Below, piece by piece: positions 3,101 to 32,977 of a stretch of 32,977 nt of DNA. The stretch is from positions 1-32,977 of IMG/VR virus record IMGVR_UViG_2713896908_000011, one strand, 5' to 3'. Source of the DNA: a virus. Lineage: Duplodnaviria; Heunggongvirae; Uroviricota; Caudoviricetes. The notes beneath the pieces are model-generated. The model was given only the letters and a program-made list of their open reading frames with translations, was not told where the DNA came from and ran no database searches. The first letter of the stretch is position 1. The number at the start of each line of letters is the position of its first letter. A program made the position numbers and the translations under genes.

Positions 3101-3194
3101 CACCATTCAGAAGGTTTTTGATACGGGGAATTTCATTTTTAAACTCTGCCGCATCAATCCCCAAATCAATGACCAGGTTGGCTATCTGGTCCAT
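120..3194 (-). CDS. H: tail tape measure protein (lambda gpH-like)
   Basis: 1034-aa ORF (120..3224), Q/A/R/E-rich and coiled-coil-like, sitting between the G/T chaperone genes and M. Segment MDQIANLVIDLGIDAAEFKNEI resembles the lambda H N-terminus, so start is placed at the internal Met (3194); the track start at 3224 is the alternative. Confidence 0.9.
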   Translation of the reverse strand: MDQIANLVIDLGIDAAEFKNEIPRIKNLLNGAASDAERSSARMQRFMERQTQAARQTTQAASSAATAASVHAQTVEKNAQAHERMAREVEQTRQRMEALSQKMREEQAQAMALAEAQDKAVAAFYRQIDSVKQASAGLQELQRIQQQIRQARNSGGIGQQDYLALISEVTAKTRVLTQAEEEATRQKVAFIRQLKEQATRQNLSSSELLRAKAAQLGVSSAAEVYIRKMEQAGKATHSLGLKSAAARQEIGVLIGELARGNLGALRGSGITLANRAGWIDTLMSPKGMMPGAVIGGIAAAVYGLGKAWYDGQKEGEEFNRQLSLTGHYAGVTAGQLWTLSRAISGNGITQHAAAGALAQVVGSGAFRGNDIGMVARAAAQMERSVGQSVSDTINQFKRLKDDPVNAAKSLDNELHFLTATQLEQIRVLGEQGRSSDAARIAMSALAEETGRRTADIDNNLNALGSTLQTLSDWWKQFWDAAMNIGREDSLDAQIATLQEKVSRAKRLPWTASSSQVEYDQQRLNDLQEKKRQKDLQDAKEQAERNYQEQQKRRNAENAALNRMNETEAARHQREIARINAMQYADQAVRDAAIQRENERYEKALASGKKKTRETRNDEATRLLLQYSQQQAQVEGQIAAVRQSAGIATDRMTEAHKQLLALQQRISDLDGKKLTADEKSVLASKDELIQALTLLDVKQQELQKQTALNDLKKKTIQLTSQLAEEERAQRQQHDLDIATVGMGDQQRQRYQVQLSLRQKYQQQLEQLRRDSEQKGTYNTDDYRKAEQALTESLNRQLNENRRYWQQLEIAQGNWKNGAMRAFQNFTADADNAAGTAEQMLTAAFNSAGNALATFCTTGKLNFKSFTASLLSDLAKIMAQMAMMQAVKGIGSAFGWGSAAAASVTPNADGGVYQSADLSRYSGTVVNRPTFFAFAKGAGVMGEAGPEAILPLRRGADGKLGVVANIGGSGMAMFEQNNHVVINNDGTNGQIGPAALKAVYDMARKGARDEIQTQMRDGGLFSGGGR

Positions 3195-3495
3195 AACGCA
3201 CACCTCCGGAAATACCTTCCCCAAGATGCATCAGTTCTTCGTCCGTTCGCTCCGGTATCCCGTTCTCTTCCGGTAAAAGGCTGAAATCAGCCACCGCAGC
3301 ATCACTGCTGCCGGACACCATTCTCACGATCAATGCCTTCAGCGAGGCAAACTGCGCATCCATCCACACATCACTGAAGCTCTGCATCCGGAAATAATCG
3401 CCCCACTCACCAAGCTCAGTGGCCGACATTTCCGACAGCATCCGCCGCCAGTCTGCCCACCGGAACTCCCGGGCAAGCCGCATGACAAACTGCAT
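3166..3495 (-). CDS. T: tail assembly protein T segment (expressed as G-T fusion by -1 frameshift)
   Basis: 109-aa ORF in the -1 frame relative to G, overlapping the G 3' end and the H 5' end. This is the lambda G/GT arrangement; a slippery-like CCGGAAAAG lies at 3510..3518 just before the G stop. Confidence 0.6.
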   Translation of the reverse strand: MQFVMRLAREFRWADWRRMLSEMSATELGEWGDYFRMQSFSDVWMDAQFASLKALIVRMVSGSSDAAVADFSLLPEENGIPERTDEELMHLGEGISGGVRYGPDSQPGH

Positions 3496-3503
3496 TTCCC
3501 GCG

Positions 3504-3893
3504 TCAGGACTTTTCCGGCGTCAGCACCTCATGCTCCAGATCCCCGGCATTCTCAATGGCACCCATACCGCTCAGCGACAGAACCATCTCCGCCCCCGCT
3601 CCCAGGGCATCATACGACCATGTTGTAATAACGGATGCGCAAAGCGTCTCAACATCCTGAGACTGTTCCGCATTCCACAGTGAGCGGGAAACCAGCCAGG
3701 CATTGATATCCATCCCCATCCGCAGAAAAGCAATCTGTCGTTCAGCCTCCGGCAGTTCTCCCTCTTCGGCATCAAACTTTGCCGTTCGCTGCTGAACAAA
3801 CGCCAGATATTCAATTCTCTGCAGCCCGGACAGCTCACTGAGCACCACGGACTGCTTTTCATAATTAAACGTGCCCTGTTTCAGAAACATCAT
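3504..3893 (-). CDS. G: tail assembly chaperone G
   Basis: Translation from the internal Met (MMFLKQGTFNYEKQSVVLSELSGLQRIEYLA...) parallels lambda gpG as I recall it (MFLKTESFEHNGVTVTLSELSALQRIEHLA...). GGAG Shine-Dalgarno precedes the ATG at 3893; the track ORF extends to 3932 but that stretch holds a terminator hairpin. Confidence 0.8.
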   Translation of the reverse strand: MMFLKQGTFNYEKQSVVLSELSGLQRIEYLAFVQQRTAKFDAEEGELPEAERQIAFLRMGMDINAWLVSRSLWNAEQSQDVETLCASVITTWSYDALGAGAEMVLSLSGMGAIENAGDLEHEVLTPEKS

Positions 3894-3906
3894 GTTCTCC
3901 ACCTGC

Positions 3907-3930
3907 AAAAAAGCCCCGGATAACCGGGGC
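3907..3930 (-). terminator. rho-independent terminator after major tail gene V
   Basis: Perfect hairpin GCCCCGG-ATAA-CCGGGGC (plus 3913..3930); on the minus-strand transcript it is followed by a U6 run (plus A-run 3907..3912). Lies between the V stop (3951) and the G start (3893). Confidence 0.7.
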
Positions 3931-3950
3931 AAATGATGAGTATCGTCCTG

Positions 3951-4694
3951 TTAACCTGCGGCGCTGACAGCCACCGTAGCCACTGCCACAAAATCGCCGT
4001 CAGAAGTCATGCCCACAATGCTGACACTGCCCTGCTTCACGCCTTTCACCGTGGCCACAAGCCCGTTCAGAGTCACCGTGGCAGTCTGTGGATCTGTCGA
4101 ATGCACACTGATCGCTTTGTCACTGGCTCCGTCAGGTTTTACTGTAAAGGTCAGCGTGGTGGTTGCTCCCACTTTTACACTGGCAGATGCCGGTGCCACC
4201 GTCAGCCCGGTAACGCTCACGGTTTCAGTGCCTTCCTCTGCCAGATACGGACGCCCCACACCGCTGATTTTCACAGTGCGGGTCATCACGTCTTTTGAGG
4301 CAATGGTTTTACCCAGTGAGCTCAGCCAGCCGCGGAAAACATCAACAGTACCGTTGGGATATTTGATACGAAACGCGCAGACTTCACCGGAGTCGAACAA
4401 CTGAACCAGTTTTTTCTGCCCGCTGTCACCCGGACGCCAGGCCAGCGTCGCCGAAGTATCACCAACGGATTTCTGCCCCTGGGTTGTCGTTTTCCAGTCT
4501 GCATCCTCATCATCGAGATAAGTGTCATCTTCTGCATCAGCGGTCATTTCGCCAGGTTGCAGATCCTTCACCATCGCAAGACGCAGCCAGTCAGTGTCCG
4601 ACAAAGGGTTCGCAAACGCATCGCCGTTGCCGGTATACATCCAGAACGTCGTCCCCGCACCTTTCGTCTTTGCCAGTGGATTTGGTGTGGTCAT
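3951..4694 (-). CDS. V: major tail protein V with C-terminal Ig-like (Big_2-type) domain
   Basis: From the internal Met, MTTPNPLAKTKGAGTTFWMYTGNGDAFANPLSDTDW... closely parallels lambda gpV; AAGGAGGTG Shine-Dalgarno precedes the ATG at 4694. The C-terminal T/V/S-rich repeat region looks like the Ig-like domain. Confidence 0.9.
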   Translation of the reverse strand: MTTPNPLAKTKGAGTTFWMYTGNGDAFANPLSDTDWLRLAMVKDLQPGEMTADAEDDTYLDDEDADWKTTTQGQKSVGDTSATLAWRPGDSGQKKLVQLFDSGEVCAFRIKYPNGTVDVFRGWLSSLGKTIASKDVMTRTVKISGVGRPYLAEEGTETVSVTGLTVAPASASVKVGATTTLTFTVKPDGASDKAISVHSTDPQTATVTLNGLVATVKGVKQGSVSIVGMTSDGDFVAVATVAVSAAG

Positions 4695-4704
4695 TACCAC
4701 CTCC

Positions 4705-5118
4705 TTAATTCGTGTACGTGATCTGGTACGTGATTTCCGCCATCGCCCAGGTGGCCATCTCATTATCACGTTGATAGTTAAAACCGAGTGGGATCAGGGT
4801 GTCGATGAGTCCGGAAAGTGCCGGTACATCATTCAGGGCCGGGAAAATGGTGCTCTCCATCCACATATCCAGCTCTGAATCCGGTGCCTGTGCCCGGATG
4901 AAGACAGCAATATGCAGAACAGCCTGCCAGTCATCTTCATCCGTCATTTTTCCGGTGTACTGAGCATCACTCAGCCACACCGCCACGGCAGGCAGTTCCT
5001 GCGCATCAACAAATGCCGGAAGCCCGTCAAAAAACGTGGCGCTGTCTCCACACTGCTCCCGAAGGCGTGCCAGTACGACCTGGCGGATTTGTGTATGTCG
5101 GTTCATCGGGTCAGCCAT
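4705..5118 (-). CDS. U: tail terminator protein U
   Basis: Sequence ...ATFFDGLPAFVDAQELPAVAVWLSDAQYTGKMTDED...PDSELDMWMES... parallels lambda gpU. An alternative start at 5106 overlaps the Z stop (ATGA). Confidence 0.85.
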   Translation of the reverse strand: MADPMNRHTQIRQVVLARLREQCGDSATFFDGLPAFVDAQELPAVAVWLSDAQYTGKMTDEDDWQAVLHIAVFIRAQAPDSELDMWMESTIFPALNDVPALSGLIDTLIPLGFNYQRDNEMATWAMAEITYQITYTN

Positions 5119-5681
5119 AACCTCAGTTGTTGTTTCAGTGCATACCCCAGCTGTTTCGGCATTTCCGCAGCAATGATGCGGTCGCGGGCATCTTCAAATG
5201 CCTGTGTCAGCGGTCCGGAAAGCGGGATTTTCACCACATCAATGGGGTAACGATTTTTGCCATCAATACGCCGCATCACATGCCAGCGACCATTCGCCAG
5301 TTGCTGAATAAACGCATCCCGGAAAAGATATTTACCCACCTTCAGCACACAGCCACGGTACTGCAGTTTTCCACCACGCCGGGCCAGTCTGACCCGGGCT
5401 GTCCCCAGCTTAATGGCGGGCAGATTGCCCCGGTTAACGCGGATCCTGGCCGTCATTTTTCCTGACGGACTGGCTTTAAACACCCGGACACGCTGACGTA
5501 CCAGTTTCAGGGGGATCCCTTTCACCTGGTTATCTCCCGCAACGGTATTCCCGGCAACCTGCCGGGTGGCAACCGAGACCGCTTTCTGTGCCACACGGTT
5601 TATCGCCCATGCGCTGGCCTGTGGCACCATACGGGTATCAAGGCTGTTCAGATTGCGGATGGCATTCTCAAGCCCCTTCAT
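5103..5681 (-). CDS. Z: minor tail protein Z (tail completion)
   Basis: 192-aa ORF in the lambda Z position between FII-like and U; size matches lambda gpZ (192 aa as I recall). Confidence 0.75.
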   Translation of the reverse strand: MKGLENAIRNLNSLDTRMVPQASAWAINRVAQKAVSVATRQVAGNTVAGDNQVKGIPLKLVRQRVRVFKASPSGKMTARIRVNRGNLPAIKLGTARVRLARRGGKLQYRGCVLKVGKYLFRDAFIQQLANGRWHVMRRIDGKNRYPIDVVKIPLSGPLTQAFEDARDRIIAAEMPKQLGYALKQQLRLWLTR

Positions 5682-5692
5682 CCCACACCTCT

Positions 5693-5968
5693 TTACTCAA
5701 TAAAGATCATTGGCTTACCGTTAAAACGTTCATGCCGTGTGACCGTCCATTGTTGTCCGTCATAAACAACGCGATCCCCGCGCCGTGGGCGGTATCCCGA
5801 AGAAAACACCACCAGAGAGACCGCAGGTCCGGACAGAGCATTCAGTTCTGCCAGTGTTTCGCCCGGGATCACAGCCATATCGACATCATTAATCGAGGCT
5901 GTCTTTCCCATCTTTCTGACCGTGATCGCATCCATACGCGCTGCCAGCCGGGAAAAGGGATCAGACAT
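5693..5968 (-). CDS. head-tail connector protein (gpFII-like)
   Basis: 91-aa ORF directly upstream of Z in the late operon; assignment is by position and size only. Confidence 0.55.
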   Translation of the reverse strand: MSDPFSRLAARMDAITVRKMGKTASINDVDMAVIPGETLAELNALSGPAVSLVVFSSGYRPRRGDRVVYDGQQWTVTRHERFNGKPMIFIE

Positions 5969-6284
5969 TGAGTTTTACCGGCACTTCTTCTGCACTGGTT
6001 CCGGCATCTGCCCAGACAACCCCGACCAGCGGATCAGAGCCGCTGTTAGTCAGCTGAACTTTTCCGGACTTCAGATAAACCTTCTTACCCGTTTTCATGT
6101 CATCCGTTTTCAGTTTAGGCAGGATAAACACACCTTCGGTCATGCCGTCGCCTGTTTCACCCTGTGGAATATCGGTCAGCGCCACCGCAAAAACATCACC
6201 CACCTGCACCAGATCTCCGCTGCTGATGGCAGCACTGGCAACAATCGCCACCGTTTTTCCTTCTTCTACAAAATTCTTTGCCAT
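5961..6284 (-). CDS. small head protein, DUF2190-like (putative capsid decoration/cement or head completion)
   Basis: Start set at the internal Met (MAKNFVEEGKTVAIVASAAISSGDLVQVGDVF...) preceded by GGAGACAG. Lies between the capsid gene and the connector. Family assignment is from memory. Confidence 0.55.
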   Translation of the reverse strand: MAKNFVEEGKTVAIVASAAISSGDLVQVGDVFAVALTDIPQGETGDGMTEGVFILPKLKTDDMKTGKKVYLKSGKVQLTNSGSDPLVGVVWADAGTSAEEVPVKLNV

Positions 6285-6326
6285 AACTGTCTCCGCACAG
6301 CCCCGTTCAGGGGCTGATTTCAGGTA

Positions 6327-6347
6327 CAAAAAAAGCCCTTACGGGCC
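6327..6347 (-). terminator. candidate rho-independent terminator after capsid gene
   Basis: Short GC hairpin (plus GCCC-TTAC-GGGC, 6335..6346) that on the minus transcript is followed by U7 (plus A-run 6328..6334). Lies between the capsid stop (6371) and the next gene start (6284). Confidence 0.4.
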
Positions 6348-6370
6348 ATCAGAGTTGTTGTCTGCGACGT

Positions 6371-8329
6371 TTACGCCGTACATTTCACCAGACCGCGGTG
6401 ATCAACTGGCGCGACACCGGCGTCAATACGCACTTTCGTTGTCACGCCATCCACACTGAAGCCCTCCATCTGATCAATATATGGCGTATCCACACCGTTG
6501 AGATAAGCCACTTCAATCGTATCGGAGCCTTTGGACGCAGCCAGGTAGAAGGTGGTCTGGCTGTTATCATCAAGACGAGGCTCTGCAATAACGGTCGCAA
6601 AATCTTTCACCGGGTTAATAATACCGGCGTTAATGTCAGCCCCCTTGACACTTGAGGAGCGAATGACCTGGTTAGCAACAGACTCCATCGCCGTCGGTAC
6701 CAGTACGAACGCAGGACGAATATTCAGATGACGCTCCCCCTCTTTCTGAACGCGCATCAACTGGCGGGCTTTATCCAGCGATGCCACGTCCATTGCAGCG
6801 CTCTCCAGTACGTTTGCATGTTTCGCTTTATCGAACAGACTTACATTATCTGTGGAGATTTTCGGGTTAGACGTCAGAATGGCATAAACCAGATCGGCAA
6901 TGGTGGATTTCGCCGCACGGCCCAGTTTCATCGGGACATCGGTCAGCATATTCAGATCATCATTGATAATGGCCTGACGGGTGATACTGAACAGCTCGCC
7001 ATAGGTCGCCAGTGCAATAGTGGCCTGTTTATCTCCGGTGGTGACGTATTTATATTCCGCCCCTTCACGCACCTGACGCAGAGCACTGAAGCCCCCCATA
7101 CCCACACGATGGGCAATTTTAAAATCAGACAACTGACCTTTCCGCGTCCACTGTTCATAGGTTTCAGGAGCATCTTCCCAGCCCTGCAGAATGGCTTTGT
7201 TCGCAACATCCAGCAGAATATTACCGAAGTCAGACGTACTGTGTGTGAACGCCGCACCGACCATCTGCATCGGGTTATAACCGGAAACCCCAATACCCCG
7301 TTCAGTCAGTGACATACGGGCATATTCACGCAGGGTCATCCCGTTGTAGACATTATCACGTTCGGTTTTTTCAAATCCGGCACGCGCCATCAGCGCCTGG
7401 CGGATCCCGTCCCCCACAAAATTACCGTTACCGGCATAAATATGAGCCGGGGTATTTTTATTGGATGGCGTGGACTCGCGCCCCATCTCGTTCAACAGCT
7501 TTTCGCGGGCCTGCTCCAGCGAACATTCAGGATCGGCAAGACACTGAGCCTGCAGCGTCTGATAACGCCCGCCAAACATGGCAAACAGATCATTAATACC
7601 GTTTACACGCGCTTTTTGCTCTGCCAGTACCTGCGCACGGATACTGTTTTCATCCACCACGGGTGCTGCTGCCTGCACTGGCGTCCGGGAGGCTGCAGGT
7701 TCATCATCCTGTACGCGTGGAGCACTGTTGCGTGGCGGAGTAATCATGTTTCGAATGGATTCCGGCATCTTTTTAAATTCCTCTGTACGTTTTGACTGAA
7801 TACATGCCATTGCCTTAACGGCTGGCGTTACCTGATCAGCAAATCCATGTGCCAGACATTCGGCACCGGACATCCAGGTCTCATCCGCCAGCATGGCAGC
7901 AATTTCATCGGTGGTTTTCCCGGTTTTCTGTGCATAAGCGGGTAACAGAACCGCCTCAACTTTATCGAGCAGGTCGGCATAGGTGCGCATGTCCTCCGCA
8001 TCACCGCCCGTAAAGCCAAATGGTTTATGAATCATCATGAAAGTGTTTTCCGGCATAATGACCGGGTTTCCCACCATCGCAATGACCGACGCCATTGACG
8101 CCGCCACACCGTCGACATAAACGGTAATGGACGCACCATGTGTTTTCAGTGCATTAAAAATGGCGATGCCTTCAAAGACATCGCCACCCGGTGAATTAAT
8201 ATGAAGATTAATGTGGGTGATATCGCCCAGTGCATTCAGATCACTGATAAACTGCTTCGCTGTAACACCCCAGAAACCAATCTCGTCATAAATATAAATA
8301 TCCGCGTCACTCTGGTGACCAGCCTGCAT
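6371..8329 (-). CDS. prohead protease (ClpP/S14-like) fused to scaffold-like linker and HK97-fold major capsid protein
   Basis: Start set at internal Met (MQAGHQSDADIYIYDEIGFWG...) 14 nt past the portal stop. N-terminal part has a ClpP-like signature (INSPGGDV, GVAASMAS, MMIHKP); C-terminal ~350 aa look like an HK97-type capsid protein. The track ORF (to 8590) overlaps the portal gene and is probably over-extended. Confidence 0.85.
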   Translation of the reverse strand: MQAGHQSDADIYIYDEIGFWGVTAKQFISDLNALGDITHINLHINSPGGDVFEGIAIFNALKTHGASITVYVDGVAASMASVIAMVGNPVIMPENTFMMIHKPFGFTGGDAEDMRTYADLLDKVEAVLLPAYAQKTGKTTDEIAAMLADETWMSGAECLAHGFADQVTPAVKAMACIQSKRTEEFKKMPESIRNMITPPRNSAPRVQDDEPAASRTPVQAAAPVVDENSIRAQVLAEQKARVNGINDLFAMFGGRYQTLQAQCLADPECSLEQAREKLLNEMGRESTPSNKNTPAHIYAGNGNFVGDGIRQALMARAGFEKTERDNVYNGMTLREYARMSLTERGIGVSGYNPMQMVGAAFTHSTSDFGNILLDVANKAILQGWEDAPETYEQWTRKGQLSDFKIAHRVGMGGFSALRQVREGAEYKYVTTGDKQATIALATYGELFSITRQAIINDDLNMLTDVPMKLGRAAKSTIADLVYAILTSNPKISTDNVSLFDKAKHANVLESAAMDVASLDKARQLMRVQKEGERHLNIRPAFVLVPTAMESVANQVIRSSSVKGADINAGIINPVKDFATVIAEPRLDDNSQTTFYLAASKGSDTIEVAYLNGVDTPYIDQMEGFSVDGVTTKVRIDAGVAPVDHRGLVKCTA

Positions 8330-8342
8330 CCTGAACCAGGAA

Positions 8343-9851
8343 TTATTCTTCGGACTGGTCGTCGGTGTGCTGCGGCTCCTGTCGTTTCGTTGCGGCACTG
8401 CTGCCTCCTTTATCACTGGCCGGATCGGTATCAAATACCAGATCCAGCTTGCGGTTTTCATCAATTTCGGCCTTGCGCCGACGTTTGACATCATCCGGAT
8501 TACGACCACCAGCACGTACCCAGTCTGATTCTGTCGCCGCTCCACCACGAATCTGGATTTTCCAGGCCTCAGCCTCCTTAACAGGGTCAATCCACGGCAT
8601 CACTGGTCCGGAATACACCGCGGTATACAGTGAAGAACGGTCAAGATCGCGGGGTAGCCTGATAACACCGGATGCCACAGCCTGTTTCAGCCAGGCACGA
8701 TACATCGGGCGGGTGACGGCACCAATAAACCAGTCCTGCAGGATCAGGTAGCCATCAGTAGACTCAACCAGTTCCTGACGCTGGGCGCTGTAAGTGCCGT
8801 TATAGTTGCGTGCCGTACTGGAAAAACTCAGACGACTGCCCGCCGCCACGGCACGCAACTGACCATTACGAAAAGTTTCAAGGTTAGGATTGGGACGATC
8901 CGACTTCACCATTCCGATTTCTTCGCCGGGTTTCAGATCGTCGTAAATAATGCCTGGCTGAATGGTAAGCTCGCGTTCATTCTCCTTGCTGTCATTACCA
9001 TCCGTTTCATAGCTCTGCCCGTCGCCTTTCCGGATGTACATCCCCAGAGCAGCGGCGATCCTTGCTGCAGTCAGCTCAGAATCTTCATACTCTTTCAGGG
9101 CGCTGAGGCGGATCAGCACACCGGACAATAAAGACGTCCCGCGCATCTGGTGCAGACGGCGAACAAATTTAAGATGCAGCATTCGCTCTGCATCCACTTC
9201 TTTGGTTTCCATCTGCCGTCCGGATACGGGACGGCTTTTATACACCAGATATTTTTCGGGACGCCCCCAGTCATCAACAAACACGCCCTGATTCAGCCTG
9301 TTGCTCTCATCACTGGTCATGGGAATAAAGTCCGGCTCGAGCGCCTCCAGCCAGAAATGAACACCGGCAGAAGGCGTCAGGCTGTTTATGCGCCCGGAAA
9401 CCATCTGGGCAAACACCTCACCATCGCGCAGCCAGGTACGCAGCATCAGACGTTCCAGCATCGGACGGGTAAACTGCCCGGTGACTTCCGGACTGACAGA
9501 CCATTCACTCCATCGGGTGCGTATCTCCGCTGCCAGATCACGGGCAATGGCCCCATTGCGTAATACCGGATGTGGCTCGACAATAATCCCGTTTTTCCCC
9601 ACCACCCGTTCTTCCAGCTTGTCAAATACACCAATGACCAGATCGTGGTTGTTATCAAGGTAACGGGCCTGCTCACGTAACGACACGGCCCCGTACTGGC
9701 TTAACTGGTCGGCAGTTCGGTTCTCCCGTCGGGCTTTGTGTGTCCGCGTCGTTTTTACGGCCTCATAAGCCTGGATCACCGCACGGGAACGCAGCCTTGC
9801 CGCTTTCCATCCTGGTGAAAAAACGCCAATCACATCATCAAGAATTGCCAT
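8343..9851 (-). CDS. portal protein
   Basis: About 500 aa between the gpW-like gene and the protease-capsid gene. Start set at Met (MAILDDVIGVF...) whose ATG overlaps the gpW-like stop by 1 nt; the track start at 9923 is the alternative. Confidence 0.85.
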   Translation of the reverse strand: MAILDDVIGVFSPGWKAARLRSRAVIQAYEAVKTTRTHKARRENRTADQLSQYGAVSLREQARYLDNNHDLVIGVFDKLEERVVGKNGIIVEPHPVLRNGAIARDLAAEIRTRWSEWSVSPEVTGQFTRPMLERLMLRTWLRDGEVFAQMVSGRINSLTPSAGVHFWLEALEPDFIPMTSDESNRLNQGVFVDDWGRPEKYLVYKSRPVSGRQMETKEVDAERMLHLKFVRRLHQMRGTSLLSGVLIRLSALKEYEDSELTAARIAAALGMYIRKGDGQSYETDGNDSKENERELTIQPGIIYDDLKPGEEIGMVKSDRPNPNLETFRNGQLRAVAAGSRLSFSSTARNYNGTYSAQRQELVESTDGYLILQDWFIGAVTRPMYRAWLKQAVASGVIRLPRDLDRSSLYTAVYSGPVMPWIDPVKEAEAWKIQIRGGAATESDWVRAGGRNPDDVKRRRKAEIDENRKLDLVFDTDPASDKGGSSAATKRQEPQHTDDQSEE

Positions 9852-10069
9852 CAGAACCTCGCCAGCCGGTACCCGGGATGCCCCCGTCGTCGTGTAATCA
9901 GAGCCGCAAGGCGGCGCTCCCACTCCTGCCGCCCCTGCCGGATCTCAGATAAGTTTTCCATGGTCATCTGCTGACCATTAAAAGTGACGGATTTTCCGTC
10001 CAGCACCGCCATTTCAGCTTCCGTATAACGCTGAATCATGGCTTCAATATCATTCTGATTCATAACCAT
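9851..10069 (-). CDS. W: head-tail joining protein (lambda gpW-like)
   Basis: 72 aa, located between terminase large subunit and portal as in lambda. C-terminal ...RRLAALITRRRGHPGYRLARF resembles the gpW C-terminus (...RRRGPAGFYV). Confidence 0.7.
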   Translation of the reverse strand: MVMNQNDIEAMIQRYTEAEMAVLDGKSVTFNGQQMTMENLSEIRQGRQEWERRLAALITRRRGHPGYRLARF

Positions 10070-16374: not shown

Positions 16375-17127
16375 TTATCTTGTCACTTTTCTCAACAGTG
16401 CTTCTGCATATGCTTCTTCCTGCCAGCACTTTGTAACCAGTTTATCAATAACATCAGCATACCCCTTGTACCACTGATAATCCGTCAGGTCCGGTACCAG
16501 TTTCTGGACATGATGCCGCGCCAGTGTGGTTGGTAAACGGCTAAACCGATTTCCATTGCAACGCCCACAAATCTTATAAACCGGCGTGCCATGAAGCCGG
16601 GTTCTTTTTTCATCCAGGACAATACCTTTACCCTTACACCCTCTGCACGCTGTGCTGACTTCTCCCTTACCATGGCAATGCTGACATAGTTCCTTCACCC
16701 ACTCTTCCTTGATAACAGATTCCCCGCTTCTGGAGTGTTTCACCACTTCGCGCAATACATTATGAAATCCAGTACCAGCACAATGCTCACAGCGAGCCTT
16801 ACTTGCCGCAGACCTGGAATAATCAGCAAAGGCAAAATTCACAAGGTAAGGGATGATCTGTAACCGGGTTTCTTCACTCAATTTATTCAATGTCGGGTTA
16901 TCCAGTGCCATCGCGTAATTGAGCAGACCTTCGATCGCAAACTGAGGATCCTGAACACCAACTTTTGCCAGGAATAAGGCAAAACCCAGTGGTGCTTTCG
17001 ACTGCACCATCCCCTGCGCAGCCATCACATCTGTAATTGTTAAACCACCCGAGCCTGTCGCCGGTGCGTCATCACTCAATTTTGGAGATTTTGGGGAGTA
17101 ATATTTTGGTAAGGCTTCAAGGTTCAT
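16375..17127 (-). CDS. Q: late-gene antitermination protein Q (phage 21/82-type family)
   Basis: 250 aa with multiple CxxC pairs (CEHCAGTG, CQHCHGKG, CRGCKGKG, CGRCNG) typical of zinc-binding Q proteins; positioned between the early/replication genes and the lysis genes. Confidence 0.8.
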   Translation of the reverse strand: MNLEALPKYYSPKSPKLSDDAPATGSGGLTITDVMAAQGMVQSKAPLGFALFLAKVGVQDPQFAIEGLLNYAMALDNPTLNKLSEETRLQIIPYLVNFAFADYSRSAASKARCEHCAGTGFHNVLREVVKHSRSGESVIKEEWVKELCQHCHGKGEVSTACRGCKGKGIVLDEKRTRLHGTPVYKICGRCNGNRFSRLPTTLARHHVQKLVPDLTDYQWYKGYADVIDKLVTKCWQEEAYAEALLRKVTR

Positions 17128-19431: not shown

Positions 19432-20085
19432 TCATGCCGCCATCTCCCTGACCAGTTTTTCTGCCTGCTGGCGAACCTGCGCCAGAAAGGCCTCACCACA
19501 TGCCTCAAGTTCATCGCGCCCGATGTAGCTGATTGCCGGTCCCTTCCAGGTCTTGTCGAAAACAGCAATAGCACCAGCAAAGAAAGCGCCTGTCGGCACC
19601 TGCTTCTCGTCCTTCGGGATAAACCAGGCAGGCAGTTCAAAACCAATACGCCCGCGAATAAAAGCAATATGGTCCGCATCTTCCGGCCACCACACTTCAC
19701 TGGTGGCAGCTTTGATCAGGAAAACATAGCGCCCGCCTTTATCACGCATGGCACTGGCATGTTTCATGATGTAACGCATGCCGGTGATGTATTGCCCCTC
19801 ATGCTGACTGGCGCGGCTGTATGGGGGATTACCAAAGGCAGCACCTTTAAGCTCCGCAAGACGTTCTGACCAGTCATGCGCCAGCGCGTTGTCTTCCGCC
19901 GTGTAATACGCGGCACATTTGGCGTTATCACCGTCGGTGAACAGATCCAGAACAAACGGGCCAAACAGGGTGTTAATTCCCCAGAAAATGTTGTCCGGCG
20001 TGCGCCACTGATCGCCCACTTCCTTCAGTTCATGGGCTGGTTTGTTCCGCAGTTCCACCAGCGCCTGGCAATATTTATTACTCAT
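19432..20085 (-). CDS. phage N6-adenine DNA methyltransferase (Dam-like)
   Basis: Motif IV FGNPPYSR (the DPPY/NPPY signature of N6-adenine methyltransferases). Start set at the Met whose ATG overlaps the upstream gene stop (TAATG); the track start at 20118 is the alternative. Confidence 0.8.
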   Translation of the reverse strand: MSNKYCQALVELRNKPAHELKEVGDQWRTPDNIFWGINTLFGPFVLDLFTDGDNAKCAAYYTAEDNALAHDWSERLAELKGAAFGNPPYSRASQHEGQYITGMRYIMKHASAMRDKGGRYVFLIKAATSEVWWPEDADHIAFIRGRIGFELPAWFIPKDEKQVPTGAFFAGAIAVFDKTWKGPAISYIGRDELEACGEAFLAQVRQQAEKLVREMAA

Positions 20086-20579
20086 TAAGCCCCCACGTAA
20101 TTCCCTGACAGATACCACTCTTCACCCGATGCAGCGCGCTTGCTGCTTTTCCGTAAGCACCGCTCACGACGCGCCAGAAAATTGTTTCGTTCTGGCTGGG
20201 AGTGGCTTTCACGGAATGCCGCCATCCACACCGTTGCAGCACGACGGTATAAGCCCCTGGACTCCAGTTCTTCAGCCTGGCGGGTCAGGCACAAAATCAC
20301 TCGGGGATCGTTAGTGCCGACATAGAAATTGCGCACAGGTCTGGTTTCACGAACTGGTTGTGGTTCCGGCTCCTGCGCTCTCTCAGTCAGGCGCGGGAAA
20401 TGTCTGCGTGTATCTCCTTCACAACGGTGAGCCACACGCCCACTCTGACGTAACTTGCTTGCTGACTGCAGAACGCGCTGCCGTGAGTAACCTGCAAAAG
20501 CATCCGCAATGTCTCCGGAAGTACACCCCGGATGGGCTTCAATGAATTTCTGAACGTCATTCAAAAGACTCATAATCAC
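20085..20579 (-). CDS. PerC-family transcriptional regulator homolog
   Basis: C-terminal ...AEELESRGLYRRAATVWMAAF...ERNNFLARRERCL resembles the PerC/Pch signature (LE..GLWRRAA..W). The N-terminal ~60 aa look like an extra winged-helix-type segment. Confidence 0.6.
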   Translation of the reverse strand: MIMSLLNDVQKFIEAHPGCTSGDIADAFAGYSRQRVLQSASKLRQSGRVAHRCEGDTRRHFPRLTERAQEPEPQPVRETRPVRNFYVGTNDPRVILCLTRQAEELESRGLYRRAATVWMAAFRESHSQPERNNFLARRERCLRKSSKRAASGEEWYLSGNYVGA

Positions 20580-21517
20580 CCCCTGAATCCTGCCGGGATC
20601 TGGCTGTAGTCCACGTTGTCGTAACTGGCTTTGAAATACGAGTCTTCGCGTTTTTCGGTGTACGTGCTGACGGACGGCGATAAGCGCAGGGAAAGCTCAT
20701 CCCATTTTTCCCGCAGCTTCGACGGGCTGAGCACGTTACGGCACCAGAACGGATCGCGACTGACGCGGCTGTACATCTCGCAGATTTGTTTGTGAGTACG
20801 ACCATCCTGCACACACATCAGGCGAATTTCGTTTGCCCAGGCTGTCCAGTTCGGTTCTTTGGGACGAACCACCTCGCCGTCACATTCGGCGGCCTGCTCG
20901 TACAGGGCGATGATTTTTTTCCAGAGCCACTGTGCGCAGGTCAAATCATCCTGCGTTCCCCACTGGCGCTTTTTAGGGCTGAATACAACCGCATCAGGAT
21001 GGCGAGTTAAAAACTCCTGTTCAGCCGTCTGCGTGTCCGGTTGCGAAGCGTCCGGACGAGAAGGTTTTTTATCTGACGGATCATGTTTTGATTTTACTGA
21101 CGGATCCCCGCCAGATTCTGACGGGTGAAAACCCGCTTTTTTGCCAGATTTTGACGCATCAAATTTTGACGGGTCAGATTTTGATGCGTCAGATTTTGAC
21201 GGGTCAGAATCTGACAGTTGAGAAAAAGCTGCAGCCTGAAGCTTCGCAACGTTAAGCTGATAAACATTCGACGCATTGCGGTTACCCTGGCGACGCGCCT
21301 TACGCGTTAACCAGCCTTCTGCTTCCAGCCGTGCGATAGCCATTCTGACGGTACTCATCCCCGCGCCAATCTGGCGGGCAATGGTTTCAATTGATGGCCA
21401 GCACACACCTTCGTCATTACTGAAATCAGCCAGGCGGGCCATAATTGCCACGCTGGATAATTTCATGCCTGATGCAGCGCAACCATCCCATACATAGCCG
21501 GTTAATTTAGTACTCAT
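20576..21517 (-). CDS. O: replication initiation protein (lambda O-like replisome organiser)
   Basis: N-terminal HTH (...SIETIARQIGAGMSTVRMAIARLEAEGWL...), a central low-complexity repeat (SDPSKSDASKSDPSKFDASKSGKK) encoded by DNA iterons, and a C-terminal domain; same layout as lambda O with an intragenic ori. Confidence 0.8.
   Translation of the reverse strand: MSTKLTGYVWDGCAASGMKLSSVAIMARLADFSNDEGVCWPSIETIARQIGAGMSTVRMAIARLEAEGWLTRKARRQGNRNASNVYQLNVAKLQAAAFSQLSDSDPSKSDASKSDPSKFDASKSGKKAGFHPSESGGDPSVKSKHDPSDKKPSRPDASQPDTQTAEQEFLTRHPDAVVFSPKKRQWGTQDDLTCAQWLWKKIIALYEQAAECDGEVVRPKEPNWTAWANEIRLMCVQDGRTHKQICEMYSRVSRDPFWCRNVLSPSKLREKWDELSLRLSPSVSTYTEKREDSYFKASYDNVDYSQIPAGFRG
21072..21219. repeat. 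iteron array (candidate origin of replication) inside the O-like gene
   Basis: Tandem ~15-bp direct repeats read directly: cagattttgacgcat (21145), caaattttgacgggt (21160), cagattttgatgcgt (21175), cagattttgacgggt (21190), cagaatctgacagtt (21205), plus degenerate copies at 21072..21126. Confidence 0.75.
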
Positions 21518-21526
21518 GACCGACCT

Positions 21527-21865
21527 CTATTTCCCTGAATTTACGACGAAACTGTTCGAGCGGACTGAAGCATTCATGCTCATAGCCTTCGCGGAGGTAG
21601 ATAACCCGTTGTGTTTCCGGTTCCCAACGAATGACTCTGACGGGTACTCCGTAGTGATCTTTGAACCAGCGGTTAACTTGTCGCAAAGGACTGTCTCCTT
21701 TTGTCGGTTGAAATCACCCACAGCCCACTCTGCAAAGCTGTGGGTTACAATTTCCCTGTCACCTGGTACATTCACTGCATAGCAATACTCCACCTTCGCT
21801 TTTCCACCCGGTACAGGAAGCGCAATCAGTTGCGAGCGACGGTAGTGTGTTGTTAAACTGTTCAT
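21527..21865 (-). CDS. hypothetical protein, translationally coupled to the CII-like gene
   Basis: 112-aa ORF whose ATG overlaps the upstream stop (ATGA); no recognisable motif. The plus-strand ORF 21516..21782 is judged antisense. Confidence 0.45.
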
Positions 21866-22470
21866 GCGTTAGTTTCTCCACAGTCACGACACGCCACGGC
21901 GCCCGGAGCTGCACACTCGCGGGCGTCATTACTTTCTGAAATGCAAAAAATTTTGTAGACCAGTGCAGCATGCTCCTGCAGCTTCGAAATTGAGAGATAC
22001 AGCTCGTCGTTGATTGCTGTCTTCTCATGCGGTTCCACCACACCGTCTTCGATTGCCGAACGAATCTGTTTGGAATAACTGCCAATCTGTTCAATGACTT
22101 CCAGCAGGCGCTGGTTAATATCGGCGTTGTCCACATCCTCGACGTCAGGAAGAGACACAAAGACGCCATTTGCCGACTGCGCCACAGCGTCAGCAATGAA
22201 GTGAGTTCCACCAGCACGTTGCAAAATCATTGCCCATCCCAGCGGGAAAATCTGATCGCCATCGGCACGAAGGCGGTTAAATAATGCGCTCTCTGTTACA
22301 TCCAGCCAGTCAGCTGCTTCAGCGTAACCACCCGGCAACTTTGCGATAGTTTTTCTGACAGCTTTCACGTACCACTCAGGCTGTTTTTCTACTTTCCAGT
22401 GATGCTTACCCACGGTTAGCCTCATCGTTCTGTGGTTTCTGTTAATCGATTTATCCATTAGATTTTTCAT
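21862..22470 (-). CDS. CII-like/YdaT-like early regulatory protein
   Basis: First gene after cro in the rightward operon. Start is uncertain (candidate ATGs at 22470 or 22458; the track start at 22527 is a GTG overlapping cro). Family placement (Phage_CP76-type CII versus YdaT-like) is not resolved. Confidence 0.45.
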
Positions 22471-22651
22471 AAAGCTCAGGTTTAAATGGCAACCGTCCGC
22501 AAGTTCTATATGCAGCTTCTGCTGCACGTCCTTTTGGAATTAACTGGCCCGGACGGTTTCGCCACTGATAAACGGCTTCAGTTGTTATGCCGAAAAAAGC
22601 AGCAACTTTCTCAATACTGCCGAAGTAGCTTTCGATATCGTCAGTTGTCAT
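22451..22651 (-). CDS. cro: Cro-like/YdaS-like HTH repressor
   Basis: 66 aa, divergent from the cI-like gene across a 97-bp intergenic region; ...EKVAAFFGITTEAVYQWRNRPGQLIP... fits the Cro/YdaS-type HTH. Confidence 0.7.
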   Translation of the reverse strand: MTTDDIESYFGSIEKVAAFFGITTEAVYQWRNRPGQLIPKGRAAEAAYRTCGRLPFKPELYEKSNG

Positions 22652-23588: not shown

Positions 23589-24104
23589 TTATCGGTCAGA
23601 TTTAAACTGGGGTTCTGGCAAAACTGGTGGTGTTGAATCTTCAAATCGTAACCAGTGTTCCCAAATATCATGTGTTCGTAATTTCTGTAGACTAATTTGA
23701 CGCGATGCAATTGCGGAATTAGTGGTTACTCCACCAGAAGCATCGCCCTCTACTGACGTTGAGGCTTTTTCTACTAATTCTGACCAAGCTTCACTTTCTG
23801 CGTCAAAAGCTTCTGTTAAGTCCCGCAGACGCTGTGGCTCATTTTTATGGTCTTCCTTCAAACGATTCAAAGCGGCAGTTGAATACTTATTCCTGACCCA
23901 TTCGATCTGAGTTAGCTGAATCCGCAGACAATTATCTATATCAATGGTTGTGTTCTGAGGCATGTCAGAACAAGAAATATAAAAGGTCACAACTCCACCG
24001 TTCAAACTACTGCCCGGTTCGATTAAAACATTAGAGGAATTTGACGTAGTCGGCAATATTAATGCTAACGACAAAACCACATGTTTAACAGAAATCGCAC
24101 CCAT
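23589..24104 (-). CDS. hypothetical exported or membrane-anchored protein (moron between cI and the early-left operon)
   Basis: 171 aa with AGAGGG Shine-Dalgarno. N-terminus MGAISVKHVVLSLALILPTTS resembles a signal peptide or signal anchor. Convergent with cI and followed by a terminator; this is the slot that rexAB/sieB-type exclusion genes occupy in lambdoid phages. Confidence 0.6.
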   Translation of the reverse strand: MGAISVKHVVLSLALILPTTSNSSNVLIEPGSSLNGGVVTFYISCSDMPQNTTIDIDNCLRIQLTQIEWVRNKYSTAALNRLKEDHKNEPQRLRDLTEAFDAESEAWSELVEKASTSVEGDASGGVTTNSAIASRQISLQKLRTHDIWEHWLRFEDSTPPVLPEPQFKSDR

Positions 24105-29546: not shown

Positions 29547-30656
29547 ATGGAAAACAAGACCAATAAGGAAAAAAGTGTAAGAATTAGGCTGGCTTTTAAA
29601 AGATGGCAGCGAAGTGTTTCCCGTCAAGGGAAAGAGTATTCGCAGTTTCGTCAACAAAAAAAATCTCAAAAGAAAAAAGATAATACCTTTATTCGGTTTC
29701 CATCTGAGTTTTCAATATATTCACCAGATAAGCCTAATTTTTTTGCGCACTCTCTACACTCGATAAATCACGTCAGGAATAAAAAATACAATCCTGATGA
29801 GAGATTATATTTAGATTTTACAAATACAAAAACAATAAAAATGGCAGCATTAGTAATACTTTATGCCAGTGTTGAAACTTCAATTCGTAAAGGTTTATCG
29901 TACAGATTATTATTTTCAACAGATTTTAAAGTCAATCAGCTTTTAAGAGACTCGGGTCTTGTCGCCTTATGTCGGGGCGAAAAATTAAAACCTGTCTTCG
30001 AAAACGTTGAAAACTTGCCCATTATTAGCGGGGTAGGAGGAGAATATAGAGATGAGATTATAGATTTCATCCAGAAAGAAATTTATAAAAACAAGATGAA
30101 ACCTGAAACAGAACATACATATGCAGATGCTGTTCAGGAAGCAATAAATAATGTTGGTTTACACGCCTATCCGCATAAAAATAATGATGAGAAACGATGG
30201 TGGCTTGCATGTCACGTAATTCATGACCAGCTGTATCTTGCTATATATGATGAAGGTGTTGGTATACCTGAAACTGTAATGCAAAAGACATGGTTTATGA
30301 GTACGCTCAAATCAAAATATCCAGATCTAAAGGTTGCGGTTAACGAAGAACTTGAGAGAATAGGTTTAGGTTATAAAGAGCGCTCTAAAGTAAAAGTTGG
30401 TATTGTTTCTGATGCAGTAAAAATAGCAATTTCTATGATTGGAGACGTAACCGGTACAGCCAATGATAAACATGGTCAAGGAAGTAAGAGTATTAAAGCT
30501 CTAGTACTAAATAATGAACATGGAAACCTTTGGATTTACAGTAATTTAGGTATGTTCAAGCTTTCTAATAAGAAAGGTGATAAAATTAATGAGTTAACTC
30601 ATAAAGTACCAGGTACTTTAATTCAGTGGAACATCAAGGTCAGCTATGAAGACTAA
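29547..30656 (+). CDS. GHKL-superfamily ATPase/kinase, RsbW/SpoIIAB-like (anti-sigma-factor-type HATPase_c) with novel N-terminal domain
   Basis: 369 aa with AGGAG Shine-Dalgarno. Bergerat-fold motifs in the C-terminal half: N-box AVQEAINNVGLHAY (compare EA.TNA..HAY of RsbW/SpoIIAB), G1-box IYDEGVGIP, G2-like ERIGLGYKE. The N-terminal ~190 aa are Lys/Arg-rich and not recognised. AT-rich codon usage. Confidence 0.7.
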   Translation: MENKTNKEKSVRIRLAFKRWQRSVSRQGKEYSQFRQQKKSQKKKDNTFIRFPSEFSIYSPDKPNFFAHSLHSINHVRNKKYNPDERLYLDFTNTKTIKMAALVILYASVETSIRKGLSYRLLFSTDFKVNQLLRDSGLVALCRGEKLKPVFENVENLPIISGVGGEYRDEIIDFIQKEIYKNKMKPETEHTYADAVQEAINNVGLHAYPHKNNDEKRWWLACHVIHDQLYLAIYDEGVGIPETVMQKTWFMSTLKSKYPDLKVAVNEELERIGLGYKERSKVKVGIVSDAVKIAISMIGDVTGTANDKHGQGSKSIKALVLNNEHGNLWIYSNLGMFKLSNKKGDKINELTHKVPGTLIQWNIKVSYED

Positions 30657-30978
30657 AAACATCAATGTTATCAAAGACTTCAACAGTAAGCCTTACGGGC
30701 GCTATCCAGACGATGGGGCAGGCTGTGGGGAAAACTTTCGCAAATATCTGGCAGGCTTTCTCAAAGAGTATGATTTAGTTCATGTTGAGTTGACTGGATA
30801 TAACCGTTATGGGCGTTCATTTATTGATGAAGCGTTTGGTGGCTTGATCCGAGTAGAAGGCTACACATTAAGCGAACTTAAGAAAAAACTAACTTATACT
30901 CATAAAGATATTAAGAGTATTGAGACCTTGATTGATGAACGATTGAATAAGGCAGAGAGTGATGCAGGAAGAGGTTAA
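30646..30978 (+). CDS. DUF4325/STAS-like small protein (putative anti-anti-sigma-type partner of the GHKL protein)
   Basis: 110 aa, ATG overlapping the upstream gene by 11 nt. Core VHVELTGYNRYGRSFIDEAFGGLIR matches the DUF4325 STAS-like pattern (LDF.GV...S.SF.DE.FG.L) as I recall it. Confidence 0.6.
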   Translation: MKTKNINVIKDFNSKPYGRYPDDGAGCGENFRKYLAGFLKEYDLVHVELTGYNRYGRSFIDEAFGGLIRVEGYTLSELKKKLTYTHKDIKSIETLIDERLNKAESDAGRG

Positions 30979-31456
30979 TTATACAAGTATTGTGATTGCT
31001 ATAATTGGTTGGCTTGTTGCGTCTTATTTCAACAATAGAGCATTCAAGCGAAATGATATTTCAAGGCAAAAGGATAAAATCTGTCAGCAAATAGAATCTC
31101 TTTTTGATAATGTTTTAGATAAGCTCTCTTCTAGAGATACTAAAGAATTAGAGCTGGATAATTTTTTAGCCTCCAGTGTCTCATTAATTGAAATGCAGCT
31201 GTCTCATTTATCACAAAGGATTGGTAAGAAATTATTATGTGATGAACAGTTGTCATCTATCAGATCAACACCTTTAGACTTGTTAAGCAAAAAGTGTGAT
31301 TATAAAAATGAACTTCATGAGATGAAGTATTCAATATTAGAGGAAATTGAAGGTAATTATACAAAATGGTTTTTTGATAGTTACTCAAAAAGATTCAAAT
31401 CCATCTTTGCATCAAAAAGAAGCACACCTAATACTGATCTGAATAGACTATCTTGA
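30962..31456 (+). CDS. single-pass membrane protein (candidate effector of the cassette)
   Basis: Overlaps the upstream stop by ~17 nt. N-terminal TM helix (SIVIAIIGWLVASYF) followed by a ~140-aa helical soluble domain with no recognisable motif. ATG at 30962 preferred over the GTG at 30959. Confidence 0.6.
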   Translation: MQEEVNYTSIVIAIIGWLVASYFNNRAFKRNDISRQKDKICQQIESLFDNVLDKLSSRDTKELELDNFLASSVSLIEMQLSHLSQRIGKKLLCDEQLSSIRSTPLDLLSKKCDYKNELHEMKYSILEEIEGNYTKWFFDSYSKRFKSIFASKRSTPNTDLNRLS

Positions 31457-31753: not shown

Positions 31754-32977
31754 TCAGTTGGGGTCTGAGCTAATACAAGCAACTATCAATTCAACCCTCT
31801 CCCACCATACCTGGTAGGCTTTACGCTGTTCTTCTAGATAATCGCTCTTGTCATAAACCTGCCATCCCCCTGGCAACTTATGACCAAGCATAATTTCTGC
31901 AATATGAGGCGCAGTAAGATCAGAAAAGTTTGTTCGTGCTGTTCGCCTCAAATCATGAAGAGACCAATGAGGGAATTGATACCCCAAACGTCGCCATGCG
32001 AACTGCATTAAATTGTAAGGCAGCGACTGCAATGATGTCCGACCAACTGGCTCCCTGCTTCCTTCCTTAGTAAAAAGCATATCGGAACCGTTGTTCATAG
32101 AGATAACGTATTTTATAAGCTCTTCAACCGGCCCAATAATGGGCCGCTTTAGTGGTTCGCCTGTTATCTCCCCTGTCTTATGTCGTTCTGGCGGTACAGT
32201 CCATACCTTATTAATGAAATCAAAATCGTCCACCCTAGCGGTAATTAGCTCTGAACTACGGCAGCCAAAATGCAACAATAGTTTAATGAAGGCCCGGTAT
32301 TTAGGAACCATTCGAGAACCATCGATCGCAGCATAAAGGATTTTAATTTCATCATGTGTCAGAAACCGTTTCTTCTGACCTTTACGGATATCCATATCTT
32401 TACCTGTGATATCCGACAGCGGGCGAGTTTCAATGAGCTTTCTCTTATACGCCCAGACATGGGCCTGCTTTGCGTTAATTAGCAATCGGTCAGCTATTGC
32501 TGGAGTCTTAGTGCTAAGAGGCTCCAAGACCTCTAACCAATCATGCAATGTAGCTGCATCGTGAGGGATACTCCCGATTTTAGAGAACAGGTGCAGTTCA
32601 AATGAGCGGAGTATCTGCTCAGCACCTTTTTTATTTTTTACACAATATGCTTCATACCAAGCACGGATCACAGACTCTACAGTCATGGCTTCAGTAGCTT
32701 TGCGTTTTTCTGCCTGCTTGACCAATCGTGGATTGCGGTTTGACTCGAGTTCACCACGGAGACGGATAACTTCTTCTCTGGCCTCTTTTAATCCAGTTGC
32801 CGGGTAAGTTCCGATATCAAGACGCTCACCTTTCCCTGCCCATTGATAACGATATTGGAACACTACGCGACCTTTCGGTGATACTCTGACAGACAGACCA
32901 TCACGATCGGATTTAACCAAAACCTTATCACGTTCCTTTCCAACAACTGAACGCAACCACGCATCAGACAGCGCCAT
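31754..32977 (-). CDS. int: tyrosine-type site-specific integrase (P4-like, with N-terminal arm-binding DUF4102-like domain)
   Basis: 407 aa. N-terminal MALSDAWLRSVVGKERDKVLVKSDRDGLSVRVSPKGRVVFQYRYQW... is P4-integrase-like. C-terminal catalytic elements HDLRRTART (HxxR) and a Tyr in ...GGWQVYDKSDYLEE. The ATG sits exactly at the window edge, so the true start may lie beyond. Confidence 0.9.
   Translation of the reverse strand: MALSDAWLRSVVGKERDKVLVKSDRDGLSVRVSPKGRVVFQYRYQWAGKGERLDIGTYPATGLKEAREEVIRLRGELESNRNPRLVKQAEKRKATEAMTVESVIRAWYEAYCVKNKKGAEQILRSFELHLFSKIGSIPHDAATLHDWLEVLEPLSTKTPAIADRLLINAKQAHVWAYKRKLIETRPLSDITGKDMDIRKGQKKRFLTHDEIKILYAAIDGSRMVPKYRAFIKLLLHFGCRSSELITARVDDFDFINKVWTVPPERHKTGEITGEPLKRPIIGPVEELIKYVISMNNGSDMLFTKEGSREPVGRTSLQSLPYNLMQFAWRRLGYQFPHWSLHDLRRTARTNFSDLTAPHIAEIMLGHKLPGGWQVYDKSDYLEEQRKAYQVWWERVELIVACISSDPN

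Follow-up and report, generated by a model that had tools for sequence, protein, structure and literature searches.

Replication module of the prophage

The stretch of DNA analysed here in its full length of 32,977 nucleotides (nt), referred to as the window, belongs to an E. coli lambdoid prophage (IMG/VR virus record IMGVR_UViG_2713896908_000011). Its early-right operon lies on the minus strand and runs in the order cro, a CII/YmfL-type gene, a DUF4222 open reading frame (ORF), the replication initiator, YfdN, Dam, a small ORF, RusA, a KilA-N protein, a DUF968/HNH protein and Q. The current work concerns the replication module of this operon, in which the initiator ends in a short tail shared with the host protein DnaT and no recognisable helicase loader follows it. 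The tail may be the element that brings in the host helicase. The features of the module are as follows, all on the minus strand; E denotes the expectation value and aa amino acids.

20576-21517, minus strand: replication initiator, 313 aa, a mosaic protein (PHROG 391 'replication initiation O-like', E 2e-134; Pfam HTH_36)
21308-21451, minus strand: N-terminal winged helix of the initiator, HTH_36, residues 23-70 (Pfam, 39.5 bits; cutoff 25)
21111-21217, minus strand: putative origin, six CCGTCAAAATCTGA iterons within the linker codons of the initiator (Tandem Repeats Finder, TRF, and motif count)
20687-20998, minus strand: helical C-terminal domain (C-domain) of the initiator, residues about 174-277, lambda-O-type (tblastn, alignment A4, AlphaFold2 (AF2) model, BFVD)
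20579-20611, minus strand: DnaT-type tail of the initiator, DYSQIPAGFRG-stop (identity to K-12 DnaT, hhalign)
20085-20573, minus strand: YfdN homologue, 162 aa from its ATG (Pfam PerC), translationally coupled to both neighbours
19432-20085, minus strand: Dam, phage N-6-adenine methyltransferase, 217 aa (Pfam Dam, E 1.1e-45; TIGR01712, E 1.5e-76)

The genes of the module are closely packed. The junction between initiator and YfdN reads TGA-TT-ATG, leaving a gap of 2 nt, and the TAA stop of YfdN overlaps the ATG of Dam. An alternative GTG start would give YfdN the coordinates 20085-20579 and a length of 164 aa; public annotation takes the ATG and 162 aa.

Absence of a helicase loader

An initial annotation of this DNA had noted that the module contains no recognisable loader of the P or DnaC type, and three kinds of search of the window bear this out. 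A Pfam scan of 31 ORFs, which covered the early regions together with lysis and packaging from integrase to terminase and left the structural ORFs at 1-10,000 outside, found no member of the P, DnaC or DnaB families. When all six frames of the window were compared by tblastn with lambda P, two further P proteins, K-12 DnaC and DnaB, the best E was only 0.024. Among open segments of at least 80 aa in the window, the Walker A motif occurs in the terminase alone. With no DnaC match and no Walker A motif beyond the terminase, no DnaC/IstB-type AAA+ gene abuts the initiator stop; nor does a P-type loader lie directly downstream of the initiator, where YfdN sits.

A P or DnaC homologue was also sought elsewhere in the prophage. 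None is present within the window, which ends inside the tail genes so that the far left end of the prophage lies outside it, and none was found in the complete genomes of the related phages SfII (41,475 base pairs, bp) and mEp460 (42,927 bp), where no loader homologue appeared at E <= 0.01. SfII, SfIV, mEp460 and cdtI are viable phages with loader-less modules.

Domain structure of the initiator

The protein had been described as O-like, and this description fits one part of it. The helical C-domain is a homologue of that of lambda O; the N-domain is HTH_36 and not Phage_rep_O. The Pfam scan of the initiator gave no match to Phage_rep_O (PF04492), a family with which lambda O itself scores E 5.8e-36 in the same test. 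For the C-domain, residues 78-270 of lambda O align by tblastn to 20687-21310 (E 8e-23), and the domain is 40% identical to O of lambda, 434, 933W and VT1 (tblastn, E 7e-19). The AF2 model of this domain is helical, with a predicted local distance difference test (pLDDT) score of 70, and its top matches in BFVD are phage replication proteins.

Six copies of CCGTCAAAATCTGA occupy the linker codons between the two domains. Five of the six are spaced at 15 bp, and the guanine-cytosine (GC) content is lowered here (0.42-0.47). TRF reports a repeat of period 15 with 4.3 copies. Allowing at most three mismatches, CCGTCAAAATCTGA has 11 matches in the window, 8 of which fall within the 110 bp of 21108-21217; these eight are the six minus-strand copies and two plus-strand matches that overlap them. 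By chance, 3.8 matches would be expected in the whole window, and none of 100 shuffles reached 11.

The helical C-domain was also considered as a DnaT C-terminal domain. This was ruled out: there is no Pfam DnaT match, a profile search of PDB sequences did not return DnaT, and the profile-profile alignment with DnaT covers only the tail. PF17948, the three-helix domain that binds single-stranded DNA, was not matched in any of 20 members of the initiator family, even at E <= 10. BLASTP and hhalign found no likeness outside the tail to the N-terminal oligomerisation and PriB-binding domain of DnaT with its acidic linker.

The DnaT-type tail

The initiator ends in DYSQIPAGFRG, in which 8 of 9 residues are identical to the end of K-12 DnaT, and the shared peptide stands at the extreme C-terminus of both proteins. 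The tail peptide of the initiator is KASYDNVDYSQIPAGFRG, and its counterpart in DnaT is residues 160-179. Relatives that are 55-66% identical to the window initiator end in QRCVNHISEPDTEIPPGFRG or QRDVNAISEPDNTIPEGFRG. When the initiator profile was aligned by hhalign to 20 DnaT orthologues, the match had a probability of 93% and E 2.7e-7 over 22 tail columns only; the comparison of single sequences gave 91%, again driven by the tail.

In the 20 DnaT orthologues, residues R160, D161, S166, P168, D169, I172, P173, G175, F176, R177 and G178 are invariant. In alignment A1, G141, F142 and R143 each occur in at least 90% of the sequences. No function has been assigned to the flexible 20-residue tail of DnaT (PMC5778457), and the handover from PriA-PriB-DnaT to DnaB-DnaC is still described as unknown in papers of 2024-2026 (PMC11087952, PMC13377028). 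From the likeness of the two tails, we propose that host DnaC, alone or in complex with DnaB, docks on this peptide. In DnaC, the change A84Y (dnaC1331) blocks the PriA/PriB pathway.

Tail type and loader type in other phages

Viral contigs were searched at the DNA level for the pattern D-x-x-I-P-x-G-F-R-G-stop, and at least 120 loci were found. All of the 120 loci listed end at true stop codons, and nearly all close initiator-like ORFs, a few of which are truncated where the contig ends or is broken. The tail is carried by at least five initiator architectures, including DUF1376/YdaU-like proteins, HTH_36 proteins with a C-domain of either the lambda-O or the cdtI type, and proteins with a lambda-O-like N-domain. 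Enough downstream DNA to judge the next gene was present at 97 of the listed loci. At 51 of these 97, a DnaC homologue that shares 47-50% identity with the host protein begins at -4 to +6 nt relative to the stop codon of the initiator; a P-like or DnaB-like gene occurs at none of the 97.

The linkage also appears when the search starts from the loader. All 79 YdaV-like loci are preceded by a GFRG-tailed protein, one of them with three extra residues after the motif. In a diverse set of phage DnaC genes, 74 of 80 come after a protein whose C-terminus is IPxGF[RKTV]G plus at most two further residues; the proteins upstream of the 80 genes form 12 clusters. Among non-redundant pairs of initiator and DnaC, the motif is present in 86 of 92. 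Genes similar to lambda P have a different neighbour: all 71 such loci are preceded by ...TDWIYGV[DE]L, and in lambda, SEN34 and mEp237 the O protein has the ending ...NTDW(I/A)YGV and P is the next gene. At five loci (L038, L050, L102, L105 and L127) a lambda-O-like N-domain is joined to a GFRG tail, and there DnaC is the next gene. The C-domain can also stand without this tail, as it does in Vibrio phage K72. Because GFRG tails pair with DnaC and TDWIYGV tails with P across differing initiator bodies, these comparisons indicate that the type of tail goes with the type of loader. When the columns of DnaC were searched for covariation with tail residue -2 (R against T, K or V), many columns correlated, an effect of the non-R tails forming essentially one clade.

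These patterns bear on another partner for the tail. It might dock on PriA or another part of the restart primosome, and a primosome of the PriA/PriB/DnaT type at the phage origin would then load DnaB with host DnaC. Loading of DnaB by such a primosome with host DnaC is the mode of the primosome assembly sites of phiX174 and ColE1. The tail motif is invariant in DnaT, whose C-terminal domain docks on PriA by a conserved hydrophobic surface (PMC12871339, PMC13377028). The PDB sequence file lists 179 residues for the DnaT chain docked on PriA in 9ZBT (intermediate preprimosome) and 154 for the filament chains in 9ZBU (mature), a difference suggesting that the tail may matter at the PriA contact. 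However, neither of the two papers (PMC12871339, PMC13377028) ascribes the PriA contact to the tail. Docking on PriA would also leave unexplained why tail type tracks DnaC as against P, and why phages keep the tail directly upstream of their own DnaC. We consider this explanation unlikely.

Close relatives of the window initiator, 67-70% identical in both domains, occur with either arrangement. DnaC is the next gene at L041, L056, L061, L064 and L065, and DnaC is missing at L042, L098, L110, L118, L124 and L128. By this comparison, loss of DnaC from a module of the 'initiator + DnaC' kind seems to have produced the loader-less layout. In the loader-less lineages, the residues before the motif have diverged (KASYDNVDYS..., PMKFGPVDTK..., SSKLDTD...) and D..IPxGFRG has been kept. 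Retention of the motif while its flanks drift argues for selection on it in phages without their own DnaC, and host DnaC would be its obvious remaining partner.

The same evidence bears on the idea that the tail is a functionless relic of a DnaC-containing ancestor. The helicase would then be obtained through contact of the lambda-O-type C-domain with DnaB or DnaB-DnaC, or by way of DnaA, transcriptional activation or recombination-dependent replication. This idea draws on the very large size of the C-domain family, for which a profile search returned 6557 cluster representatives at E <= 0.001, and on the many tails found in it. Among the best full-length C-domain matches, 89 of 102 were binned as 'other' under the strict tail pattern; two of those 89 have variant GFRG-type tails, and many others end in motifs containing TDW or TSW. 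The presence of RusA and a DUF968/HNH nuclease in the same operon also speaks for this idea. Against it, the motif is conserved in loader-less lineages whose flanking residues have diverged and is nearly invariant across alignment A1, and we regard this reading as improbable.

YfdN and the gene slot after the initiator

YfdN begins with a winged helix (residues 1-60), which a disordered linker (63-84) connects to a PerC-type domain of three helices (90-149). In the 164-aa form, Pfam PerC (PF06069) matches residues 100-151 with 36.1 bits against a cutoff of 22.6. The initial annotation had called this protein a PerC-family regulator with an N-terminal extension; the family assignment lies above the Pfam cutoff, and the extension proves to be the winged helix. 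The methyltransferase that it placed after the PerC-like gene is confirmed as Dam by both the Pfam and the TIGR01712 matches. YfdN has been termed 'the K12 unique PerC homologue' (PMC5931665).

A loader or other replication role for the 164-aa protein had also been raised, and the comparisons do not favour it. The protein has no resemblance in sequence or fold to the known loaders searched for, namely the DnaC/DnaI AAA+ proteins, lambda P, SPP1 G39P and T4 gp59. In cdtI, and at L047, L058, L059, L077 and L097, the tail-bearing initiator is followed directly by Dam, with no gene of the YfdN type. In DnaC-bearing modules, similar small winged-helix proteins stand downstream of DnaC, which argues that YfdN is not a substitute for the loader. 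YfdN as the loader was therefore ruled out by these proteins beside DnaC, by the regulator-type neighbours of its fold and by the lack of a P-loop.

A broader form of the idea is that DnaC is replaced by YfdN, or by the small winged-helix proteins of this slot as a class, acting as a helicase adaptor or loader that has so far gone unrecognised. In favour of this, YfdN lies where other modules have P or DnaC, its translation is coupled to that of the initiator, and loader-less modules mostly have some small winged-helix protein in this place. The s140 and s112 homologues, however, are also found downstream of DnaC where DnaC is present. Together with the modules that pass straight to Dam, the PerC score and the regulator-like fold, this makes the replacement of DnaC by such a protein very improbable. 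The best reading of these comparisons is that YfdN is a winged-helix/PerC-type regulator that adjoins the initiator in the operon by chance and is not a loader.

The small proteins of this slot include two families of about 140 aa (s140) and about 112 aa (s112), with winged-helix-like N-termini, which lie downstream of replication genes with or without DnaC. They were observed at L012, L020 and L042 (+40 after the initiator stop), after DnaC at L015, L041 and others, and at L131 and L026. In many DnaC-bearing modules, an ORF of 256-270 aa lies between DnaC and the small protein. Dam-type methyltransferases that follow the initiator elsewhere can be longer than the 217 aa seen here, at 291-297 aa or 444 aa. 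Such longer forms are present at L047, L077 (ORF at -4 to 1331 after the initiator stop), L058, L059 and L006 (4059-4952). PHROG labels some of them 'phosphoadenosine phosphosulfate reductase'.

Proposed recruitment of the host helicase

The comparative evidence makes it fairly probable that this is an initiator-only lambdoid module, whose DnaT-mimicking tail would recruit the host DnaB-DnaC complex and in which YfdN would not be a loader. The 313-aa initiator would bind the iterons in its own gene through the HTH_36 winged helix, and the lambda-O-type C-domain would organise the origin complex. The tail, ...D-x-S-Q-I-P-x-G-F-R-G-COOH, a putative copy of the flexible tail of DnaT, would then bring in host DnaB-DnaC. 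With the host complex recruited in this way, a phage-encoded loader would be unnecessary. Initiator-only modules are reportedly defined in the review of phage replication modules by Weigel and Seitz (2006).

The initial annotation had suggested that the C-terminal region of the initiator recruits host DnaB/DnaC. The comparative data support this suggestion and narrow it to the tail of 11-20 residues shared with DnaT; we infer that this tail may physically contact DnaC or DnaB6-DnaC6, and that host DnaC would serve the phage. The explanation by a DnaT-mimicking tail was not found in the literature reached, where the topics of solo initiators and DnaT-like proteins gave nothing relevant.

Several points weigh against this explanation. 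It is the N-domain of DnaT that has been favoured as the recruiter of DnaB/DnaC (Nat Commun 2026, PMC13377028), and no direct contact of DnaC with PriA, PriB or DnaT has so far been demonstrated (PMC11087952, PMC13377028). DopC, which by description has a DnaT_C region, is reported to pair with the P-like DopE (PMC5509034). The tail might contact PriA instead. Among the listed loci judged, 46 of 97 tail-bearing loci have no DnaC homologue within 1.5 kilobases (kb), and 5 of the 80 DnaC-adjacent initiators have other tails, of an acidic-aromatic kind. The samples are phylogenetically redundant, and the adjacency of the genes may reflect inheritance of a cassette or shared ancestry rather than contact.

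The acidic-aromatic tails belong to L315, L321, L323, L342 and L348 and end in ...QFIPEDF, ...QFISEDF, ...EKPPEFN or ...EKPPGFN. They may be variant docking motifs.

A more general proposal can be made, which seems to us quite possible but is offered tentatively. The IPxGFRG tail of DnaT could be the missing docking peptide for DnaC or DnaB6-DnaC6, and unrelated phage initiators would share it. This phage, SfII and others that lack a loader would hijack host DnaC by mimicry of DnaT. The host dnaT-dnaC pair and the phage cassettes would then be two versions of one ancestral module.

Distribution and significance

The layout of these genes is a common one and has been annotated before. Of 5426 complete E. 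coli genomes, 2816 show similarity to the 4.5-kb region, 445 of them with coverage of at least 80%. RefSeq names the initiator 'helix-turn-helix domain-containing protein' and its neighbour 'yfdN: PerC family transcriptional regulator'. The same module is present in phages SfII, SfIV and mEp460. Stx2 and Stx2c phages match the region in part (about 50%), and their initiator shares only the tail. The layout occurs in Stx-converting, cytolethal distending toxin (CDT)-converting and serotype-converting phages, in which the initiator is called 'replication protein O', 'primosomal protein I' or 'helix-turn-helix protein'.

The tail pattern would explain this very common gene layout. It also turns the open question of the DnaT tail and the handover to the helicase into a concrete and testable hypothesis. 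If these phages do depend on host DnaC, this would predict their host range and what they require for replication.

Other features of the window

Further features of the window are listed here.

21507-21686, minus strand: small DUF4222 ORF, 59 aa (Pfam DUF4222, E 8.6e-19), overlapping the initiator start by 11 nt
within 21862-22527, minus strand: CII/YmfL-type gene
22451-22651, minus strand: cro
31754-32977: integrase

Upstream of the initiator, at 21507-21865 on the minus strand, the 59-aa DUF4222 ORF overlaps a 112-aa ORF in another frame. Annotations differ here, the 112-aa ORF being called in SfII and the 59-aa ORF in vB_EcoM-689R6. The Q antiterminator (16375-17127, minus strand, 250 aa) contains a zinc-finger-like stretch of the DnaJ type, CXXCXGXG; its match to Pfam DnaJ_CXXCXGXG has E 3.4e-7 and falls under the cutoff of that family.

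A three-gene island of low GC content (0.34-0.36) adjoins the integrase at 29547-31456 on the plus strand. Its products are a protein of 369 aa without a Pfam match, a protein of 110 aa with a DUF4325 STAS-like domain, and a protein of 165 aa without a match. PADLOC found nothing for the island, the initiator or YfdN, and gave one GajB match (E 0.0094) that was regarded as chance. The island at 29547-31456 is a candidate moron or undescribed defence cassette. Between cI and the left operon, at 23589-24104 on the minus strand, a 171-aa ORF in a region of low GC content has a hydrophobic N-terminus and a weak LprI-like match (E 0.0075), and it may encode an exported moron product.

Comparison with known systems

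The O/P system of lambda is similar to the module in several respects. In both, the iterons lie inside the initiator gene, between the N-terminal DNA-binding domain and the C-terminal domain, the C-domains are homologous, and the operon position after cro and cII is the same. They differ in the N-domain (Phage_rep_O in lambda, HTH_36 here), in the P gene, which the window does not have, and in the end of the initiator, ...TDWIYGVDL in lambda and ...IPAGFRG here.

For YfdN, the nearest counterpart is in the CPS-53 region of K-12, where yfdO (an initiator fragment), yfdN and yfdM stand in the order of the window; the 162-aa protein is the orthologue of YfdN. Compared with the PerC/Pch family (PF06069), YfdN has an additional N-terminal winged helix.

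DopC (Brezellec et al. 2017, PMC5509034) resembles the window initiator in combining an HTH_36 N-domain with a DnaT C-terminal region. It differs in having no iterons and no lambda-O C-domain, in its P-like partner DopE and in its chromosomal location (PMC5509034).

Modules composed of a phage initiator and DnaC have the same tail as the window initiator, and its close relatives of 67-70% identity can have a DnaC homologue 6 nt downstream, whereas the window module lacks the DnaC-type gene. E. coli DnaT shares the tail as well, and dnaT lies directly upstream of dnaC, just as relatives of the window initiator precede DnaC-type genes. Unlike DnaT, the initiator has neither the oligomerisation domain nor a detectable PF17948 domain, and it is an origin-binding initiator rather than a restart adaptor. 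YdaU of the Rac prophage differs from the window initiator in its DUF1376 N-domain and in its C-terminal stretch, which resembles DnaT over a greater length (40% identity over 80 aa). In K-12 Rac, YdaU ends in ...SAIPPGFRG, and the start of YdaV, which shares 50% identity with DnaC, lies 6 nt further on; the spacing between host dnaT and dnaC is 2 nt. Rac ydaU-ydaV (L133, 2620-4230) and host dnaT-dnaC (L004, 2239-3518) therefore have the same two-gene layout, a GFRG-tailed protein followed after 2-6 nt by a DnaC-type ATPase, which suggests a common origin of the cassettes.

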